Shown in pieces: positions 1 through 42,455 of a stretch of DNA of 64,000 nt. The stretch lies in sequence record NC_019500.1. One strand, given 5' to 3'. Both the position numbers and the translations under genes were made by a program. This DNA comes from Escherichia phage Bp7. The notes under the pieces are model-generated. The model was not told where the DNA came from, ran no database searches, and was given only the letters and a program-made list of their open reading frames with translations. Each line of letters opens with the position of its first letter. The stretch's first letter is position 1.

Positions 1-586
1 AAAGTATTAATCGACCAAGCAGCTGCTGAGTTCGTAAGTAATGCCGAAGAGATTGCCGCGCTTCAAGCAGAGCTTGATAAAATCGTCTCTACCAAATCCA
101 CATTGGTAATGGAAAAATATCATCGTGGAATTCTGACAGAATGTTGAAGGATACTGGTATTAAAGGTTCCATTATTAAGAAATACATCCTATCTTTAATA
201 AGCAGATAAATTCTTATTTGAAGATTATGGAAGCCGACTACGTCTTTACACTAGACGAAGAGTTCAATGAGACGATTAAATCACGTGGACGTGAAGACTT
301 TAGTTATGCTTCATTTTCACAGGGTGAGAAAGCACGTATTGATATCGCACTACTTTTTACATGGCGTGATATTGCTGAAAAAGTCAGTGGAGCCACATTA
401 GTACATTAGTGTTGGATGAAGTTTTGATGAGCAGTTGACGCTGAGGCTGTTAAGGCGATTGCAAGTATTCTTAATAATCTTGAAGACAGTAATGTTTTTA
501 TAATCAGCCACAGGGACCATGACCATCAAGCATATGGCCAGCATTTACAAATGAAAAAGGTTGGTCGATTTACAATTATGGAATAA
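1..586 (+). pseudogene. 46: gene 46 recombination endonuclease subunit (SbcC/Rad50-like ATPase), 3' end; reading frame interrupted at about 141, 189, 395-410 and 420-430
   Basis: Conserved segments HRGILTE / MLKDTGIKGSIIKKYI / PIFNKQINSYLKIMEADY / SQGEKARIDIALLF (signature motif) / LVLDEV (Walker B) / NVFIISHRDH lie in three different frames, with stops in every frame around 407-430. Confidence 0.6.
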
Positions 587-4858: not shown

Positions 4859-4863
4859 ATTAA

Positions 4864-5226
4864 ATGATTGAAATTACTCTGAAACAACCTGAAGACTTCT
4901 TGAAAGTGAAAGAGACCCTAACTCGTATGGGTATCGCTAATAATAAAGAAAAGAAACTATATCAATCCTGCCACATTCTGCAAAAGCAAGGGCTGTATTA
5001 TATAGTCCACTTTAAAGAGATGTTACGTATGGATGGTCGCCAAGTTGATATCGATGGTGAAGACTATCAACGTCGAGATTCAATTGCCCAGCTTCTTAAG
5101 GAGTGGGGACTGATTGATATTGTAGATGAATCTGAACTGTTCGAAATCACCAATAACTTCCGTGTCATTTCCTTTAAGCAGAAAAATGACTGGGAACTAC
5201 TGTCTAAGTACACCATTGGTAATTAA
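4864..5226 (+). CDS. regA: RegA translational repressor
   Basis: 120 aa; MIEITLKQPEDFLKVKETLTRMGIANNK is near-identical to T4 RegA. Confidence 0.9.
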   Translation: MIEITLKQPEDFLKVKETLTRMGIANNKEKKLYQSCHILQKQGLYYIVHFKEMLRMDGRQVDIDGEDYQRRDSIAQLLKEWGLIDIVDESELFEITNNFRVISFKQKNDWELLSKYTIGN

Positions 5227-18564: not shown

Positions 18565-19593
18565 ATGTCATATGTCGATAAAGAATTTGCTGTACGTGCC
18601 TTGAATTACCAACCTAAATTCAGACAAGTAACTGGTAGTGATTTTAAATTAAACTGTCGTTGTCGTGTATGCGGTGACTCTCAAAAAGATGAGAACAAAG
18701 CTCGTTTTTGGGCCTATCCGGCTAATGACGGCTCTGTAATGCTGCACTGTTTTAACTGTGACTATTCAGCAGGAATTAAGAAGTATCTATACGAATACGA
18801 GCCTGATTTATATCGCGAATATATTCTTGAGAAACATAAAGAGCAATCGTTCGGGAGACAAGCTGCACCTAAGGTGGAGATATCTGAAAAAATTAAAGCT
18901 AAGATGCCTGTCATCGAAAAGCTTAATTTCTGTGAACGATTAGATAGGATGCCGAAGGACCATCCTATTATCAAATATGTGACGTTACGTTGCATTCCTG
19001 AAAACAAATGGAACCGGCTGTGGTTTACTAAAGAATGGCCTGCATTAGTTAACTCTGTGAATCCAGGGACCTATTCTAAAGAAATGCCTGAGCCTCGTTT
19101 GGTTATTCCAATTTTCAATAAGAATAAACAAATTGAAAGTTTTCAGGGTCGAGCCTTACGTAAAGATGCTCCACAAAAATATATTACAATAAAAGCTCAC
19201 GACCAAGCTACAAAAATATATGGAATGGATACAGTTGACGAACGTCAGTTGGTGTGGGTAATGGAAGGCCCTATTGACTCTTTGTTTGTTCCGAATGCAA
19301 TAGCAATTACTGGCGGGTCGTTGGACTTGGCTATGGTTCCGTGCAAAGAAACTAGGGTTTGGGCCCTTGATAGCGAAAGCCGCCACCCAGATACTATTTC
19401 AAGAATGAAAAAGCTTATCGAGGCTGGTGAAAAAGTAGTGTTTTGGGATAAGGTCCCTTGGCCTTCTAAAGATATTAACGATATGATTAGAAAAGACGGG
19501 GCGTCGCCGGAAGCAATACTAGAATATATGAAAAGTAATTACAGTCAAGGATTAATGGCTAAATTGAGATTACAACGGTATGCTAAAATATGA
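18565..19593 (+). CDS. 61: gp61 DNA primase
   Basis: 342 aa; zinc ribbon CRCRVCGD...CFNC; FQGRALRKDAPQKYITI resembles T4 gp61. Confidence 0.9.
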   Translation: MSYVDKEFAVRALNYQPKFRQVTGSDFKLNCRCRVCGDSQKDENKARFWAYPANDGSVMLHCFNCDYSAGIKKYLYEYEPDLYREYILEKHKEQSFGRQAAPKVEISEKIKAKMPVIEKLNFCERLDRMPKDHPIIKYVTLRCIPENKWNRLWFTKEWPALVNSVNPGTYSKEMPEPRLVIPIFNKNKQIESFQGRALRKDAPQKYITIKAHDQATKIYGMDTVDERQLVWVMEGPIDSLFVPNAIAITGGSLDLAMVPCKETRVWALDSESRHPDTISRMKKLIEAGEKVVFWDKVPWPSKDINDMIRKDGASPEAILEYMKSNYSQGLMAKLRLQRYAKI

Positions 19594-20345
19594 ATTATAA
19601 TAAAATTTATGACGATTTGGTTAATAGGGCCCTTGAAAGGGGTCTTATTAAAGAAAATTTAAAATACTATACAGAATCTCATCATATTATACCTGAATGT
19701 ATAGGTGGGCCTGATATAGATTCAAACAAAGTATTATTTACGGCAAGAGAGCATTTTATAGCTCACATATTATTGTATAAGATTTATAAGTTGCCTAAAT
19801 TAATATATGCTGTGCATATGATGTGCAATTCTAGTGAAAAGCACCAAAGAAATTCTAAGATGTATGACTGGCTTAGAAAGGACCATAAAGCAGCCTTAAG
19901 TAAGAAAATGACCGATGCTTGGAAAGCCCCTGAATTTAGGACCAAAATGGTGGCGGCCTTATACCAAAGGCACAAAGATAAGCCCGTCACAGAGGAGACT
20001 AGGGAAAAACAGTCTAATTCTCTAAAGAGGTATTATAAAGAAAATCCTATCTCTGAAGAAGCAAAAAAGAAAAATTCAGAAGCCCAAAAACAAAGGTTTA
20101 AAGATAGGCCTCAAACAGAAGAAACAAAAAGATTAAGGAAGGACTCATGCAGAAAAACCCAAGGCACCCCTATATGGTTATGTAATTCGAATGGGGTAGG
20201 AATAGAAAAGTTTTCTTCTGCGGCAGAAGCTAAAGAAATCTTAGGATTGTCCGGGCACACCCAAAATATATACACCGCTTGTAAGCGAAACAAAGAAACC
20301 GGGAGATTGTATAAATCCTCCGGTTTAATTTGGAAATATCAATAA
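19590..20345 (+). CDS. HNH homing endonuclease (Mob-like), paralogous to the 592-1308 gene
   Basis: HHIIPECIGGPD; N-terminus MNYNKIYDDLVNRALERG parallels MNYKSIYEKLIQRAVNR; AT-rich with AGA/AGG/ATA codons; start overlaps the gp61 stop (ATGA). Confidence 0.7.
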   Translation: MNYNKIYDDLVNRALERGLIKENLKYYTESHHIIPECIGGPDIDSNKVLFTAREHFIAHILLYKIYKLPKLIYAVHMMCNSSEKHQRNSKMYDWLRKDHKAALSKKMTDAWKAPEFRTKMVAALYQRHKDKPVTEETREKQSNSLKRYYKENPISEEAKKKNSEAQKQRFKDRPQTEETKRLRKDSCRKTQGTPIWLCNSNGVGIEKFSSAAEAKEILGLSGHTQNIYTACKRNKETGRLYKSSGLIWKYQ

Positions 20346-23144: not shown

Positions 23145-23714
23145 ATGAACATCGAACAAAAATGTCTTTATCAAGACCGAATCAATTCCAAATTCTCAAA
23201 ACACGAACAGAATCTTTTAGAAAAATGTCTGGATGCTAAAAAAGACCCTAACTTCCATTACGACCTTGACAAACTGGTTCGCAAGCATGTTACTTCAGCG
23301 GTTCCAGTAGAGTTGTATCGTGGGATTACCACCAGAGAACTTGAGCAATTAGAGCTCCTTTCAGTAGGGTGTCAATGGTCTCCTGGTCGAGTTACTTCTT
23401 TTAGTACACAATACTCTCAGGCTCGTCAGTTCGCAGGGGCGTGGGAATATGGAACCAAAACCATTTTAAGTCTCAGGAATGCACCGTTCATTTTCGACTA
23501 CTACAACCATGCTATAGACCTTGTTCTTGCAGGGAATGTAGACGCCCTTGAAATTGATGAAACTCGTATTGACCTCTATGATATGGTCGAAACTGAATGT
23601 GAGTTCATGGTCTCTAGCCAATCGCGATTTGAGATTGTTGCAATCGAAACCGTCAAAAGAGACCCGTATGAAATCGAGTACAAAACAATTCATTTAAAAA
23701 TGTTGGATTTTTAG
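23145..23714 (+). CDS. ADP-ribosyltransferase, ModA/ModB family (R-S-E type)
   Basis: LYRG, SFSTQ and ECEF motifs. Confidence 0.55.
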   Translation: MNIEQKCLYQDRINSKFSKHEQNLLEKCLDAKKDPNFHYDLDKLVRKHVTSAVPVELYRGITTRELEQLELLSVGCQWSPGRVTSFSTQYSQARQFAGAWEYGTKTILSLRNAPFIFDYYNHAIDLVLAGNVDALEIDETRIDLYDMVETECEFMVSSQSRFEIVAIETVKRDPYEIEYKTIHLKMLDF

Positions 23715-23768: not shown

Positions 23769-24383
23769 ATGTTATATCCAAGCCACCGATTATCAGAGTT
23801 CTATGACAATGTTAAGTGTGATGATTTCCGTGAAAACATCCAGTGCGAAATCAACCAGCAGTATTCTGATTTAGAACAGAGTACCCTCTGGCAGTGCATG
23901 GAAAATAAACCAGATTGTATCCAGGAAACTCTGAACAAAATTATTCGTAAGAACCTGACTTCTGTAGTGCCTGATAAGCTCTATCGAGGCATATCTAAAA
24001 AGACTATGAAGTATCTAGAGTCCACAATGTGTGTAGGTGCGGTAATTGAATTCGACCGCGTGATGAGCTTCTCTAAAGACTTCAACGTGGCAAGGAATTT
24101 CGCGTCTTATAACTTCTACGGCACATTTAATATCTTTTGTATTAATGATGCACCATTTGTGTACAATTATCAGGAAGAAATCTTTAAAATGTTATGTGCC
24201 GCGCCCCCTGAAGAGTTCCCAGGTGCATTTCCTGAATCTACCCGTGTAGCAAACTTACAATTAATCAATGATGAAGATGAGATGATGTTCCCTGCGGGAA
24301 CTACGCTGCGCGTAGACTCTATTGAGAGAAATCCTAAATGGAATAATTACACCATTTGGAATCTTTCCGTTCTTTCTTACTGA
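23769..24383 (+). CDS. ADP-ribosyltransferase, ModA/ModB family (R-S-E type), tandem paralogue
   Basis: LYRG, MSFSKDF and EDEMMF motifs. Confidence 0.55.
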   Translation: MLYPSHRLSEFYDNVKCDDFRENIQCEINQQYSDLEQSTLWQCMENKPDCIQETLNKIIRKNLTSVVPDKLYRGISKKTMKYLESTMCVGAVIEFDRVMSFSKDFNVARNFASYNFYGTFNIFCINDAPFVYNYQEEIFKMLCAAPPEEFPGAFPESTRVANLQLINDEDEMMFPAGTTLRVDSIERNPKWNNYTIWNLSVLSY

Positions 24384-24452
24384 ACCACCTGGTTTAATTG
24401 AAAGGCAAAGTCCTTGATTCATTATACCGTCGAAAATTTAAAGCAAAAAAGT

Positions 24453-24481
24453 GTTTACTTTACCGAGCAACATGATACTAT
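24453..24481 (+). promoter_or_regulatory. early promoter cassette
   Basis: gtttac, 17 bp, tgaTACTAT, tagacctatcagct. Confidence 0.45.
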
Positions 24482-24521
24482 AGACCTATCAGCTAATCGT
24501 CCGTAAGATGAGAAAAATATT

Positions 24522-25270
24522 ATGCCTACTATTAAAACTAACGATGAATTTGAGTTAAAGGTTTACAAACGTCGCGAACACACTAAAGCCTCTGCCAAAA
24601 AACGTGGTAAGGACTTTAACCTGTCTAGTAAGTACGTTCGTAGACTTCTTGAACAAAAAGTGTGTGCATATTCAGGCGAGCGCTTTGATGAGAATTCAGA
24701 TAAAGATAAGATTTCGTTTGAACGCTTTAACAACGATATAGGTTATATCGAAGGTAATGTAATCCCGGTTAAAGTTAAGTACAACGGGTTGCGAGCTGAT
24801 TTGTCTTTAGATGAATTGAAACGTGCACAGACTCGTTTAGCGTCCCGTATTTCAGGTGGTTCTAAAATGCCTAATAGTTTTAAAGTTACCCCAGATAATT
24901 ATTATAAAATTCGTAAAATAGTTAAAAATATTAAAGATACCCAAAGAGGTCTTAAAAAGCGTGAAAAACGTCTTAAGGACCTTATTAAATCAGGAGCCAC
25001 TGATAATACCCCTTCTGTCATCGCGGTTAAGGCCCGTATCCATGGTTCTAACGCTTCAATAGGTACTATGGAAAAGGGTCTCAAATCTATATTGGTGGGC
25101 CTGATTGGCGTGTCAAGTTTAAATTGTCTGAAGCAGAAACGCGTTACTATATGTATGATAAAATTATTCAAGGTCTGGAGCGTTTAGAACACCTTTCTTT
25201 TATTGACAAAATGAAGTTGAAAAAAGGTCTTCCGCTGAATGCTTCAATTTTTTCACTGATTAGAGGTTAA
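24522..25270 (+). CDS. hypothetical protein (srd position) with an apparent single-base frameshift near 25074-25079
   Basis: Frame-0 ORF 24522..25187 and an ATG-less frame-2 ORF 25052..25270 overlap; they join if one base is added in gaaaaggg. Confidence 0.3.
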
Positions 25271-25274
25271 CGTG

Positions 25275-25571
25275 ATGTACTATGCATACGTATTAGTTCA
25301 CAAGGACAAAGACGGGTACGAAATTCCATTAGAAGAGGCCGGTGAAGTGACTTTGTATTCGACAAAGATTGGAGCCGATACCGCTCTATCCGTTTATGAA
25401 ATGTCAACAAAAAGATATCTTCGGCTTGGACGCCTTGAAACGGTGTGCACACCTAGAAAATGGTGGTTTGATAAGTGGGAAACTAAAACAGTATATCCTA
25501 CCGAAGAACGAGCCCGAGAACTTAAATTAGTTTTAGACACTTTATATGTTAAGCGAGTAAAATTGGCATGA
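25275..25571 (+). CDS. hypothetical protein (dda.1 position)
   Basis: 98-aa ORF upstream of dda. Confidence 0.35.
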   Translation: MYYAYVLVHKDKDGYEIPLEEAGEVTLYSTKIGADTALSVYEMSTKRYLRLGRLETVCTPRKWWFDKWETKTVYPTEERARELKLVLDTLYVKRVKLA

Positions 25572-26899
25572 TTACATTTGAAGACTTGAACAACGGCCAG
25601 AGGACGGCCTTTAAAGAAATCATTGAAGCTATTAAACGACGTAAGGGCGAATGGATTACATTGAATGGTCCGGCCGGTACAGGTAAAACAACCCTTACCA
25701 AATTTATTCTTGACCATCTAGTCAAGAATGGTGAACTCGGAGTTATTTTGACTGCACCCACTCATGCGGCCAAAAAGGTGTTGTCGAAACTCGCAGGTCA
25801 AGAAGCATCAACAATTCACAGAATTCTAAAGATTAACCCTACTACATACGAAGACCAGGACATCTTTGAACAACGCGAAGCTCCTGACTTGAGCAAATGC
25901 AATGTGTTAGTTGTTGATGAAGGCTCGATGATTGATGGTAAGTTGTTTAAGATTATTGAATCTTCCGTGCCACCATGGTGTACTGTATTAGGGATTGGCG
26001 ACAGAGCTCAGCTACAACCGGTAGAACCTGGCTGTGATGGTAGTCCGCAGTTATCTCCGTTCTTTACTCATCCAAAAATCAAACAATTACATTTGACTGA
26101 AGTGATGCGTAGTAATGCTCCTATCATTGAGGTGGCTACTGAAATCCGTAATGGTGGATGGTTTAGAGATTGTATATTCGAAGACCACGGTGTCCATGGT
26201 TTTAAATCTCAGACTGCTTTAAAAGATTTTATGATGAATTATTTTTCCATTGTAAAAGATGCTGATGCTCTGTTTGAGAATAGGATGTTTGCTTATACAA
26301 ATAAATCGGTTGAAAAGCTGAATAGCATTATTCGTAAAAAGCTTTATGAAACCGATGCACCTTATATCAAGGGTGAAATCCTAGTAATGCAAGAGCCTTT
26401 TATGAAGGAACTTGAATACGATGGTAAGAAATTCTCTGAAACCATTTTTAATAACGGTCAAATGGTTCGTATTCTGGATGTGAACCATACCTCATTGTTT
26501 TTGTCTGCTAAGGATGTAGGCACTCGTCAAATGATTAATTACTGGGACCTGCAAGTAGAATCTGTTGATGAAGACGATGAGTACTATGTAGAGCATTTAA
26601 AGGTTATCGATGAGACTTCGGTCGAGAAGTTCCATTATTTCTTGGCTAAGGTTGCTACTGAGTACAAAGCCATGCGTGGTAGTGGTAAGAAACCTAAGTG
26701 GGCTGATTTCTGGAAAGCCAAGCGAATGTTCAGTAAGGTTCGAGCTCTTCCAGTGAGCACTGTTCATAAATCCCAAGGACTTACAGTCCAAAACAGCTTC
26801 ATCTATACTCCGTGTATGCACATGGCTGATGCGAATTTAGCTTCACAGCTGGCTTATGTTAGTATTACGCGTGCTCGTACCGACGCTTACTACGTTTGA
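25568..26899 (+). CDS. dda: Dda DNA helicase (SF1B)
   Basis: 443 aa; Walker A GPAGTGKTT; co-linear with T4 Dda. Confidence 0.9.
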   Translation: MITFEDLNNGQRTAFKEIIEAIKRRKGEWITLNGPAGTGKTTLTKFILDHLVKNGELGVILTAPTHAAKKVLSKLAGQEASTIHRILKINPTTYEDQDIFEQREAPDLSKCNVLVVDEGSMIDGKLFKIIESSVPPWCTVLGIGDRAQLQPVEPGCDGSPQLSPFFTHPKIKQLHLTEVMRSNAPIIEVATEIRNGGWFRDCIFEDHGVHGFKSQTALKDFMMNYFSIVKDADALFENRMFAYTNKSVEKLNSIIRKKLYETDAPYIKGEILVMQEPFMKELEYDGKKFSETIFNNGQMVRILDVNHTSLFLSAKDVGTRQMINYWDLQVESVDEDDEYYVEHLKVIDETSVEKFHYFLAKVATEYKAMRGSGKKPKWADFWKAKRMFSKVRALPVSTVHKSQGLTVQNSFIYTPCMHMADANLASQLAYVSITRARTDAYYV

Positions 26900-27877: not shown

Positions 27878-28351
27878 ATGAAAATTTATCGAGTGGAGTC
27901 ATCGTTTAGTATCTTAGACAACAGCGATGTTATCACAATCACTCGTCATCAATGTCGCCAATTAACCCCGTATAGAGGCTCATTTGACGAATGGAGTGAA
28001 GGTTGGTTATTGGAAGTAGGTTTCGACAGACCTAATTTTAGACACCATCATACCAATAATAAAAATATTCCATTACCAAGTCAAGACGAATTGTTGGTTA
28101 AAAATTCTAATATGGTAATTAAAACCAAATTCGAACATGAAGATTATAAAGGTGTAGATAACTACATTCCAGGTTGGTTTGTCAATCTCTACCATTTTGC
28201 TTTTGCCAGCGAGTATGATATGATGCGCTGGTTCACTCGTGAAGAGCGTGCTGAATTATCTTCTAAAGGATTTTACCTTGCTGTTACGAAATACCTGAAG
28301 ATGAGTTGTCATTGGTGGCCGCCAAGTAAGGTTCCGCAAATCCCATGCTGA
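27878..28351 (+). CDS. hypothetical protein
   Basis: 157-aa ORF. Confidence 0.35.
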   Translation: MKIYRVESSFSILDNSDVITITRHQCRQLTPYRGSFDEWSEGWLLEVGFDRPNFRHHHTNNKNIPLPSQDELLVKNSNMVIKTKFEHEDYKGVDNYIPGWFVNLYHFAFASEYDMMRWFTREERAELSSKGFYLAVTKYLKMSCHWWPPSKVPQIPC

Positions 28352-28493
28352 ACTCGTAGATTTATGAATGAGAACAATATGAAATTTAATTACAACCCTA
28401 AATACACCCCGAATCCAGCAGCTAAACTGATTGATTTGATGTTTTAAGCACTTATGTATGCCTGTTAAACCACTGGAAATTAAGGAACCTGCT

Positions 28494-28928
28494 ATGAATA
28501 CTCAGACTATCGAAATCGGCAAAACCTACAAACTGGTTGAACGTGAAATTAAAACTAAGGCCTTGATTTCTGGCCATAAAACTCTGACTGAGGTTTTTGG
28601 CGAAGGCGAATTTATTGTTGAAGAATTTACCAAAAGTGACTGGTTTACTAAATCTTACGTCATCCACGGCCGTCGATTAGATAATAACAAAATAGAGAAA
28701 ATCTTGGTTTATGAAGCAGAGTTCATCCTGTTCCAAGAAGTTGAAGTCGAACAAGACCCTACTGACCTGCTGTGTGCTGCTGTGTCTATCCGTCGTCCTT
28801 TTGATAATCCTATCTGTGGATGGGTAACAGACCAATGGGTTGAAGATGGGGTTGAGCTGCTGAACGTTGTACATGCTGGTGATTTTAGTGTAGTACCTCG
28901 TAGTGCAGTGGTTAATGTATTGAATTAA
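28494..28928 (+). CDS. hypothetical protein, paralogue A (shared C-terminal WVEDGVELLNVVHAGDFSVVP module)
   Basis: C-terminus matches that of the 29002 ORF. Confidence 0.35.
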   Translation: MNTQTIEIGKTYKLVEREIKTKALISGHKTLTEVFGEGEFIVEEFTKSDWFTKSYVIHGRRLDNNKIEKILVYEAEFILFQEVEVEQDPTDLLCAAVSIRRPFDNPICGWVTDQWVEDGVELLNVVHAGDFSVVPRSAVVNVLN

Positions 28929-38481: not shown

Positions 38482-38661
38482 ATGAAACTTTTTAAAGATG
38501 TGGTAGTCGGCGAGAGCTTTGTATTGCATAATGGCCAACAACTGATTCGCATTTCTCCTTTGCAAGTTGGGACCGAATTACAACCTGTTAATGCTACAGA
38601 CCTTTATGATTCAACTAAGCGGTTTTTGTGTAGGGCCAAGTGTACAGTGCCTTACTGTTGA
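38482..38661 (+). CDS. hypothetical protein
   Basis: 59-aa ORF. Confidence 0.3.
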   Translation: MKLFKDVVVGESFVLHNGQQLIRISPLQVGTELQPVNATDLYDSTKRFLCRAKCTVPYC

Positions 38662-39962: not shown

Positions 39963-41291
39963 ATGGAATTAACATCTCGTGGTTTAAAAAGTATTATCGA
40001 CAACGAAGCATTGGCTTATGCAATGTATACTGTCGAAAACCGAGCCATTCCGAATATGATTGATGGCTTTAAACCTGTACAACGGTTTGTAGTTGCTCGT
40101 TGTCTTGATATGGCTCGTGGTAATAAAGAAAAATTCCACAAACTAGCTTCTATTGCTGGCGGCGTAGCCGACCTTGGATATCACCACGGTGAAGGTTCTG
40201 CTCAGGAAGCAGGGGCTTTGATGGCTAACACATGGAACAACAACTATCCATTGTTAGACGGTCAAGGTAACTTTGGTTCCCGATTGGTTCAAAAAGCTGC
40301 AGCCTCTCGTTATATCTTTGCACGTATTGGAAGTAACTTTGCAAAAGTTTATAAGGACACAGAATATGCTCCGGTTCATGCGGATGTCGAACATAAGCCA
40401 CCGGCTTTTTATCTGCCTATTATTCCTACTGTTCTTCTTAATGGCGTTTCCGGTATTGCAACTGGCTATGCAACTAATATTCTTCCTCATAGTTTTGATT
40501 CTGTTAAGAAAGCTGTATTGCAAGTTCTTCAGGAAAAACGAGTAACCAAACCCAAAGTGGCTTATCCTGAATTCCGTGGTGAAGTTGTTGAGATTGAACC
40601 TGGTAGTTATGAGATTCGTGGAACGTATAAGTTCACATCCCGAACCCAAATGCATATCACGGAAATCCCATACAAATACGACCGTGAAACATATGTGGCT
40701 AAGGTATTAGACCCTCTGGAAGACAAAGGGTATATCACATATGATGATGACTGTGACGAGAACGGTTTTGGCTTCAAGGTTAAGATTCGTAAAGAATACG
40801 AATTGCCTACTGATGAAAACAAGAAGCATGAAAAAATCATGAAGGACTTCGGGTTAATCGAACGTCGTTCACAAAACCTGACTGTCATTAATGAAAAAGG
40901 TAAACTTAAGGTTTACGAAGATGCAGTTGAACTGATTCGTGATTTCGTTGAGGTCCGTAAGACCTTTGTACAGAAACGTATTGATGGTAAAATCATCGAA
41001 ACTGAAGAAGCTTTCAAACTGGCATTGGCTAAAGCCACATTTATCAAAGATGTTATTGATGGTGTAGTGGTTATCCAAGGTAAGACCCGTAAGGTTTTAA
41101 CCGAAGAATTGACCGGTAATAAAGTCTATGGCGAATATGCCGATAAACTAGTGGCCATGAACATTTTCCATATCACTTCTGACGAAGCCAAGAAACTGGC
41201 CCTCGAAGCCAAGGCTAAGAAAGAAGAGCATCAATATTGGAAAACCACTGATGTTGTAACTGAGTATGTTAAAGATTTGGAGGCTCTATGA
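39963..41291 (+). CDS. 52: gp52 DNA topoisomerase II medium subunit (GyrA-like)
   Basis: 442 aa; SIIDNEALAYAMYTVENRAIPNMIDGFKPVQRF is near-identical to T4 gp52. Confidence 0.9.
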   Translation: MELTSRGLKSIIDNEALAYAMYTVENRAIPNMIDGFKPVQRFVVARCLDMARGNKEKFHKLASIAGGVADLGYHHGEGSAQEAGALMANTWNNNYPLLDGQGNFGSRLVQKAAASRYIFARIGSNFAKVYKDTEYAPVHADVEHKPPAFYLPIIPTVLLNGVSGIATGYATNILPHSFDSVKKAVLQVLQEKRVTKPKVAYPEFRGEVVEIEPGSYEIRGTYKFTSRTQMHITEIPYKYDRETYVAKVLDPLEDKGYITYDDDCDENGFGFKVKIRKEYELPTDENKKHEKIMKDFGLIERRSQNLTVINEKGKLKVYEDAVELIRDFVEVRKTFVQKRIDGKIIETEEAFKLALAKATFIKDVIDGVVVIQGKTRKVLTEELTGNKVYGEYADKLVAMNIFHITSDEAKKLALEAKAKKEEHQYWKTTDVVTEYVKDLEAL

Positions 41292-41820: not shown

Positions 41821-42455
41821 ATGTCTAAAATTACTTATATCATCAAAGCTTCTGAAGACGCCCTGAATGAAAAAACGGCTTCGATCTTAGTACATATCAT
41901 CAAGCATAACTTCATCACTTCAGGCGAAGTCCGTGAAGCCCTGAGTGAGCAATTTAGTGCTGCGGTAGTTAACTCTAATATCGGTGTATTAATTAAGAAA
42001 GGATTCATCGAAAATCTGGTGACGGACTAGTGGCTACAGGTGAAGCAATGGACCTAGTTCAAAAAGCTGCTGACTTGTTCGCTTCTGAAAATGCTCCAGA
42101 GATGTTGGAAAAACGTAAAACGCGTAGTTCACGTGGTGTTACTCCTGAAATGGTAACACTGGCTGATGAAGTTAAAGCTTTATTAGAAGACCGTATCGAG
42201 ATTCGTGAAATTGCTGAAAACCGTAGCAACCTTGAAGTTCGATTCGCTAAACGTACCAACGGTATTCGTCAAATCGAAGTCCGTCGTGATGGAATGATGC
42301 GTATCTTCGGTTATAATATGACTGATAAAGAAAAACAAGTGTTTACTTCCTTGAATCTTGATGTTAAGATTAAGACTGGTGGTAAGAATACTTATATCGA
42401 CTTCCAAAACGTATCATCTGAAGTTATCAAAACCGTAACCAACGCAATTATCTGA
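41821..42455 (+). CDS. motA: MotA middle-transcription activator, split by a -1 frameshift in an A4 run at 42011-42014
   Basis: N-terminal part MSKITYIIKASEDALNEKTASILVHI...GVLIKKGFIE, then KSGDGLVATGEAMDLV... in the -1 frame; C-terminal part RIFGYNMTD; T4 MotA is 211 aa. Confidence 0.6.

Follow-up and report, generated by a model that had tools for sequence, protein, structure and literature searches.

Results

The srd locus and the family of its product

The window, by which we mean the whole analyzed stretch of 64,000 nucleotides from Escherichia phage Bp7 (NC_019500.1), is by its sequence an early-gene region of a T4-type, JS98-like Dhakavirus phage. The gene considered here lies on the plus strand in the following order of genes and features.

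23145-23714, + strand: modB
23769-24383, + strand: modA
24453-24481, + strand: possible T4-type early promoter, GTTTAC-17 nt-TACTAT, upstream of srd
24522-25270, + strand: srd orthologue interrupted by a -1 frame break; the intact form is 750 nt and 249 aa
25275-25571, + strand: dda.1
25568-26899, + strand: dda

The promoter is a candidate taken from reading the sequence, and a generic sigma-70 scan did not list 24453-24481. The position of srd in the early region, between modA and dda.1/dda and on the same strand, matches by window ORFs and tblastn the annotated genomes of WG01, FB, LHE83, and JS98, all of which have an uninterrupted 750-nt CDS here that is annotated as Srd, putative anti-sigma factor, or decoy of sigma70. 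The terms anti-sigma factor and decoy of sigma70 are an older label in annotation usage. Over 24400-25400 the closest DNA was that of FB, LQ5, and LHE83 (99.6% identity), followed by WG01 (99.5%) and QL01 (99.2%).

With the frame repaired, the 249-aa protein matched PHROG 1400, “Srd anti-sigma factor”, with an E value of 2.3e-92 across residues 8-249 and profile positions 3-249 of 251, and it was 99.2% identical to the Srd of WG01; Pfam has no model for the Srd family. Reading from sequence alone had already put the interrupted ORF at the srd position and described the frame downstream of it as resembling a natural C-terminus, and PHROG 1400, synteny, and identity at 58 of 59 downstream residues bear out both points. 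The Srd family was matched in 1172 phage records, in 1074 of which 80% or more of the protein is matched at a single location, and orthologues from Tequatrovirus have about 46–49% identity over 95–100% of the length. Among 20 clusters of Srd homologues, reaching down to about 37% identity, 19 are 241-259 aa long. An uninterrupted ORF of about that length is absent from the window as written and is obtained after one A is put back at 25090-25092. A natural short isoform of Srd was considered and is ruled out by these cluster lengths, the sole short cluster being a 155-aa fragment.

T4 Srd is described, in passages of PMC13232886 and PMC9409239 that cite Qi et al. 2015, as an early protein that binds the N-terminal half of RNase E and stimulates decay of host mRNA. 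By orthology with T4, the same RNase E binding and host mRNA decay role is expected for the Srd of Dhakavirus.

Several features of the N-terminal half of Srd were recorded in addition. Residues 6-128 (24537-24905) match PHROGs 3118, 3322, and 1035 (E values from 1e-16 to 2e-6), which are annotated as HNH endonuclease or endonuclease VII, and by our own reading there is an N-terminal motif, S(F/L)ER.NN..GY..GNVI.VK.KYN, with E-R where the D-H of an HNH enzyme would be expected. Structure was considered through an AlphaFold2 model of a 96%-identical homologue (P0001, pLDDT 86.5), in which this half consists of short strands followed by a helix at 64-91. The N-terminus of Srd may be a degenerate HNH-like domain. 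With the model as query, Foldseek reached E ≤ 0.001 for no PDB entry and brought up just generic coiled coils, and searching PDB sequences with Srd gave a single marginal hit. Elsewhere in the window, the strand opposite to gene 46 has, just downstream of that gene, a 240-aa ORF (592-1314, - strand) whose HNH-type motif reads ERHHIIPQCMGG...EEHYLAH, and a region after the primase gene (19590-20126, + strand) matches the same LHE83 homing endonuclease at 34–38% identity. Both regions appear from sequence to be mobile endonuclease genes whose presence varies between relatives.

Two frames and one missing base

The break itself involves the following features.

24522-25187, + strand: frame-0 ORF, 221 aa, ATG start (ORF list and protein alignment)
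25073-25079, + strand: heptamer A_AAG_GGT, of the pattern X_XXY_YYZ in frame 0, within the two-frame overlap
25082, + strand: private T>C, synonymous in frame 0 (CTT>CTC), changing a frame-2 TAA to CAA
25089, + strand: T>A, TTA>ATA, Leu190Ile, also found in an intact-frame contig
25090-25092, + strand: missing base, ATAATT to ATATT, one A of AA (DNA alignments with five relatives)
25091-25270, + strand: native C-terminus in frame 2, 59 residues, I191-G249, with the stop TAA at 25268-25270 (translation)
25148, + strand: private G>T, Asp210Tyr in repaired numbering, in a column variable across the family

As the sequence-only reading had described, the ORF list contains a frame-0 ORF that ends at 25187 and an ATG-less open frame of 73 codons at 25052-25270, the two overlapping by 136 nt. 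In the frame-0 product the first 190 residues are native Srd; the 31 that come after them (LVGLIGVSS...KVWSV) are out of frame and lead to a stop. Frame 0 tracks the family as far as ...MEKGLKSI (residue 190) and frame 2 picks it up at IGGPDWRVKF..., and correspondingly tblastn placed query residues 1-193 in frame 3 and 185-249 in frame 2. Addition of one base yields the 249-aa protein, which agrees with the length of about 249 aa predicted earlier.

The same reading had attributed the split to a single base missing from gaaaaggg (25071-25078). That a single base is missing is well founded; the site is not. The run gaaaaggg is identical in WG01, FB, and LHE83, the true gap falls about 15 nt downstream, and a base inserted in the run would bring back the full length, yet with SQIY at the position of the family's LKS(L/I). 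At the true site the deletion is a private net loss of one base against five of five relatives, with local identity of 97%. Relatives read TCT TTA ATT GGT here and the window reads TCT ATA -TT GGT, while a natural intact relative (protein P0002, from a contig of SRR21291490) reads TCT ATA ATT GGC. From the alignment gap together with the ATA ATT allele of P0002, it follows that the event was loss of one A from a two-base run, and not from the A4 or the G3 of gaaaaggg. The description of the srd lesion as a homopolymer deletion is accordingly too strong, as the run is only the dinucleotide AA. The lesion was probably misplaced because the T>C at 25082, by removing a frame-2 TAA that relatives have as TCT TAA, extends the downstream opening back to 25052.

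Only four changes separate the window from FB and LHE83 over the kilobase that surrounds srd, and all fall within 25082-25148; the lesion has three private or rare substitutions no more than 68 nt away, and the rest of the kilobase is identical. The T>A at 25089 occurs in the intact natural allele of the SRR21291490 contig (L014), which reads TCTATAATTGG, and is therefore a real polymorphism.

Conservation beyond the break

The frame-2 segment is still open and is identical at 58 of 59 residues to WG01, FB, and LHE83. It contains, intact but in frame 2, the C-terminal motif YDKIIQGLxRxExLSFIDKxKLKKGLPLNASIFxLIRG, one of the best-conserved parts of the Srd family, kept down to 36% overall identity. 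A stricter form of the consensus for this segment is ...AE...YDKIIQGLxRFExLSFIDKLKLKKGLPLNASIFxLIRG. Separate expression of this C-terminal piece was considered, and the only candidate was a TTG ORF at 25124-25270, before which no Shine-Dalgarno-like sequence was seen.

Fifty-eight phage records match 25060-25165; 49 of them align across the site and the other nine align from 25090 onward only. All 49 have one base more than the window, and their annotated srd is intact at about 245-249 aa. The consensus sequence is also found in the two IMG/VR contigs retrieved with a degenerate pattern. The exact 30-mer over the lesion was not found in viral, metagenome, or genome contig collections, no protein on record is identical to the 221-aa product, and no other assembly sharing the lesion was found in phage, viral, metagenome, and genome collections. 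Comparison with relatives thus revealed no stop at the same place and a highly conserved downstream frame, in keeping with the proposal of a broken gene.

The overlap of the two frames raises the question of programmed -1 frameshifting, i.e. that the deletion is real and is bypassed by slippage at A_AAG_GGT, producing a 249-aa Srd with SQIY for LKSI together with the truncated form. The full-length product would then contain the peptide MEKGSQIYIGGPDW. The heptamer, which lies in the overlap, does conform to X_XXY_YYZ in the zero frame, slippage by -1 at this point would produce exactly 249 aa, and the private T25082C removes the only -1-frame (frame-2) stop between the heptamer (25073-25079) and the deletion, as a suppressor opening that frame would. 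Such a substitution would have to be read as part of a recoding mechanism newly arisen in a gene for host takeover, which we consider extremely improbable, and slippage as the source of full-length Srd is equally hard to credit. The heptamer is also present in relatives whose srd is an intact single frame, where it merely encodes E-K-G, and it is judged to be a chance result of those codons rather than a recoding site; the two-frame arrangement occurs in none of the 49 relatives aligned across the site. No stimulatory structure was found in the 81 nt downstream of the heptamer (25080-25160), which have a minimum free energy of -11.6 kcal/mol and a z score of +1.21, with 176 of 200 shuffles folding at least as well, and Rfam gave no match. 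Furthermore, a -1 slip at GGU obliges the A-site Gly tRNA to re-pair to GGG, which is unfavourable. Removal of a nearby stop by a private substitution is not improbable by chance (a rough estimate is about 1 in 10), and we judge the change at 25082 to be a coincidence.

Private indels across the window

Indels were counted when their length was not a multiple of 3, they were private to one genome, and their context was at least 93% identical, among the window and the genomes LHE83, FB, ABTNLS3, IME540, and PSD2002. The window had 12 such indels, comprising 11 one-base deletions and one insertion. By the same test LHE83, ABTNLS3, IME540, and PSD2002 had one each and FB (MT682711.1) had five. 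The deletions in the window are mostly contractions of 2-5 identical bases. These and neighboring events are as follows.

141 (AAA>AA) and 187 (TT>T), + strand: private -1, 3′ part of gene 46 (window 1-586)
4861 (4861-4864): private -1, just upstream of the regA start
25091: private -1, srd
28283, 28304, 28434, and 28460: private -1, two MotB-like ORFs
38672: private -1, paired with a +1 at 38621, 50 nt apart in a small ORF, a compensated frameshift
42014 (A5>A4), + strand: private -1, motA
49942: private -1, between tail-fibre genes
59149: private +1, downstream of gene 32

In tblastn searches with LHE83 proteins, the reading frame switched within gene 46, srd, the 169-aa and 182-aa MotB-like ORFs, and motA, and the splits of the broken genes are also visible in the ORF lists. 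In gene 46 the frame is also shifted over about 392-436, a stretch that holds three in-frame stops and corresponds to ...STLILDEVFD... in relatives. By our own reading of the sequence, a conserved LVLDEV motif of gene 46 is still encoded in another frame, and its retention is as expected if the lesions are sequence errors and not decay. The motA gene (41821-42455, + strand) is split into 41821-42030 and 42030-42455 and is otherwise 98–100% identical to the MotA of LHE83; its lesion, A5>A4, is a homopolymer deletion just as the sequence-only reading had it. The two adjacent MotB-like ORFs (27878-28928, + strand) are broken in the window and intact in relatives at 169 and 182 aa, the 169-aa ORF being annotated there as a transcriptional regulator or as MotB.2-like. 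Three more one-base losses lie at 28360-28368, giving seven deletions in 180 nt (28283-28460). Each of the seven shortens a run of T, G, or C, and together they form the densest lesion cluster in the window; 28283-28460 looks like a locally low-quality stretch.

Substitutions had a different character. Private substitutions were 127 synonymous to 33 nonsynonymous, and polymorphisms shared with some relatives were, in a similar proportion, 1679 to 573. The preponderance of synonymous private changes indicates a lineage under ordinary purifying selection. As judged from these sequence comparisons, base substitutions in the record are trustworthy and only one-base deletions are in excess.

Two further observations concern variation outside the broken genes. 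One of the private indels of FB, at position 2135 of locus L009, coincides with the boundary between the short CDSs FB_0001 and FB_0002, where relatives have a single 2211-nt rIIA, a hint that indel errors are present in other public Dhakavirus records as well. The 5′ end of the gene 52 topoisomerase ORF (39967-39984) has about 51 nt fewer than that of LHE83; FB and IME540 annotate the same shorter 1329-nt form of gene 52, and the difference in start looks like natural variation rather than a lesion.

Discussion

The identity of the gene, the exact lesion, its absence from all relatives, and the surplus of private one-base deletions across the window being established directly, we put at roughly 80% the probability that the break in srd is a sequencing, base-calling, or assembly error that under-called a short homopolymer, as opposed to a biological change. 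An ordinary Dhakavirus srd would have been recorded with one A short in ATA-ATT (25090-25092). With that A missing, frame 0 would terminate at 25187, leaving the last 59 codons, which are conserved, in frame 2, while the actual phage would have an intact 249-aa Srd. An excess of one-base deletions alongside normal substitutions implies a deletion-prone process, of which the srd lesion is most economically another instance. Gene 46 is essential in T4 and motA is needed for normal T4 growth, and a viable phage could therefore scarcely carry all of these lesions. The proposal, made originally from sequence alone, that these lesions follow a pattern typical of sequencing errors is consequently upheld by 11 private one-base deletions against one insertion, mostly in short homopolymers, with one to five private indels in each relative.

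Two counterpoints to an artefact should be considered. With just two bases, the run at the srd site is a weaker setting for an error than the A5 of motA, and the three nearby private or rare substitutions could be the sign of an allele that differs locally, not of poor sequence. The idea that base-calling errors cluster around the lesion was also entertained, and it is weakened by the natural occurrence of T>A at 25089 and by the mostly synonymous character of private substitutions.

The alternative is that the deletion is a genuine strain-specific mutation, in which case srd would probably be a recent pseudogene with a frameshifted 221-aa product of 190 native and 31 nonsense residues. In the AlphaFold2 model, residues 190/191 fall where helix 164-192 turns into helix 194-223, and the truncated product, without the third long helix and the C-terminal motif, would probably be inactive. 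Since srd is dispensable in T4, a genuine frameshift could be tolerated, and the setting of the lesion amid three private or rare substitutions could reflect an allele with its own history, in a window whose natural-looking substitutions show that the sequence is not uniformly poor. A real mutation of this kind would nevertheless have to have left the downstream frame open and 58/59 identical, with no decay, and to have occurred in a record where at least eight more -1 deletions stand uncompensated in conserved genes, gene 46 and motA among them; that all of these are real is not possible. Given that error process, a single private -1 most likely belongs to it, and no other assembly in the searched collections carries the lesion. 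We therefore regard a genuine mutation as unlikely, if considerably less far-fetched than frameshifting. If the deletion were real, it would mean that loss of srd is possible in Dhakavirus, fitting its dispensability in T4.

Under the preferred explanation of an error in the record, srd itself is an already known gene, and its frame break, seen in this record alone, most likely has no biological origin. Taken as written, the record gives an Srd that is truncated or split, and the products of gene 46, motA, and the MotB-like ORFs are likewise broken. Protein-level annotation and pseudogene counts taken from it are untrustworthy until the sequence has been re-polished.

The pattern resembles homopolymer under-calling in phage assemblies in that one-base deletions far outnumber insertions and fall in short runs of identical bases, downstream frames are shifted but conserved, essential genes are affected, and substitutions are normal. 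It differs in that several of the runs are only two bases long, shorter than the classic pyrosequencing or ion-semiconductor context. Compared with the Srd of WG01 (AND75689.1), LHE83 (WEY10179.1), FB (QLF81355.1), and JS98 (ABX11041.1), the window has the same modB-modA-srd-dda.1-dda order, with DNA identity over 1 kb of 99.5–99.6% for WG01, FB, and LHE83 and 91.9% for JS98. In those four phages srd is a single frame, whereas in the window it lacks one A (25090-25092) and has the substitutions at 25082, 25089, and 25148. With the Srd of bacteriophage T4 (Qi, Alawneh, Yonesaki and Otsuka 2015, Genetics 201:977), whose function is taken here from passages in the papers citing that work, the Dhakavirus protein shares PHROG 1400 and the modA/dda map position, while about half of the residues differ.
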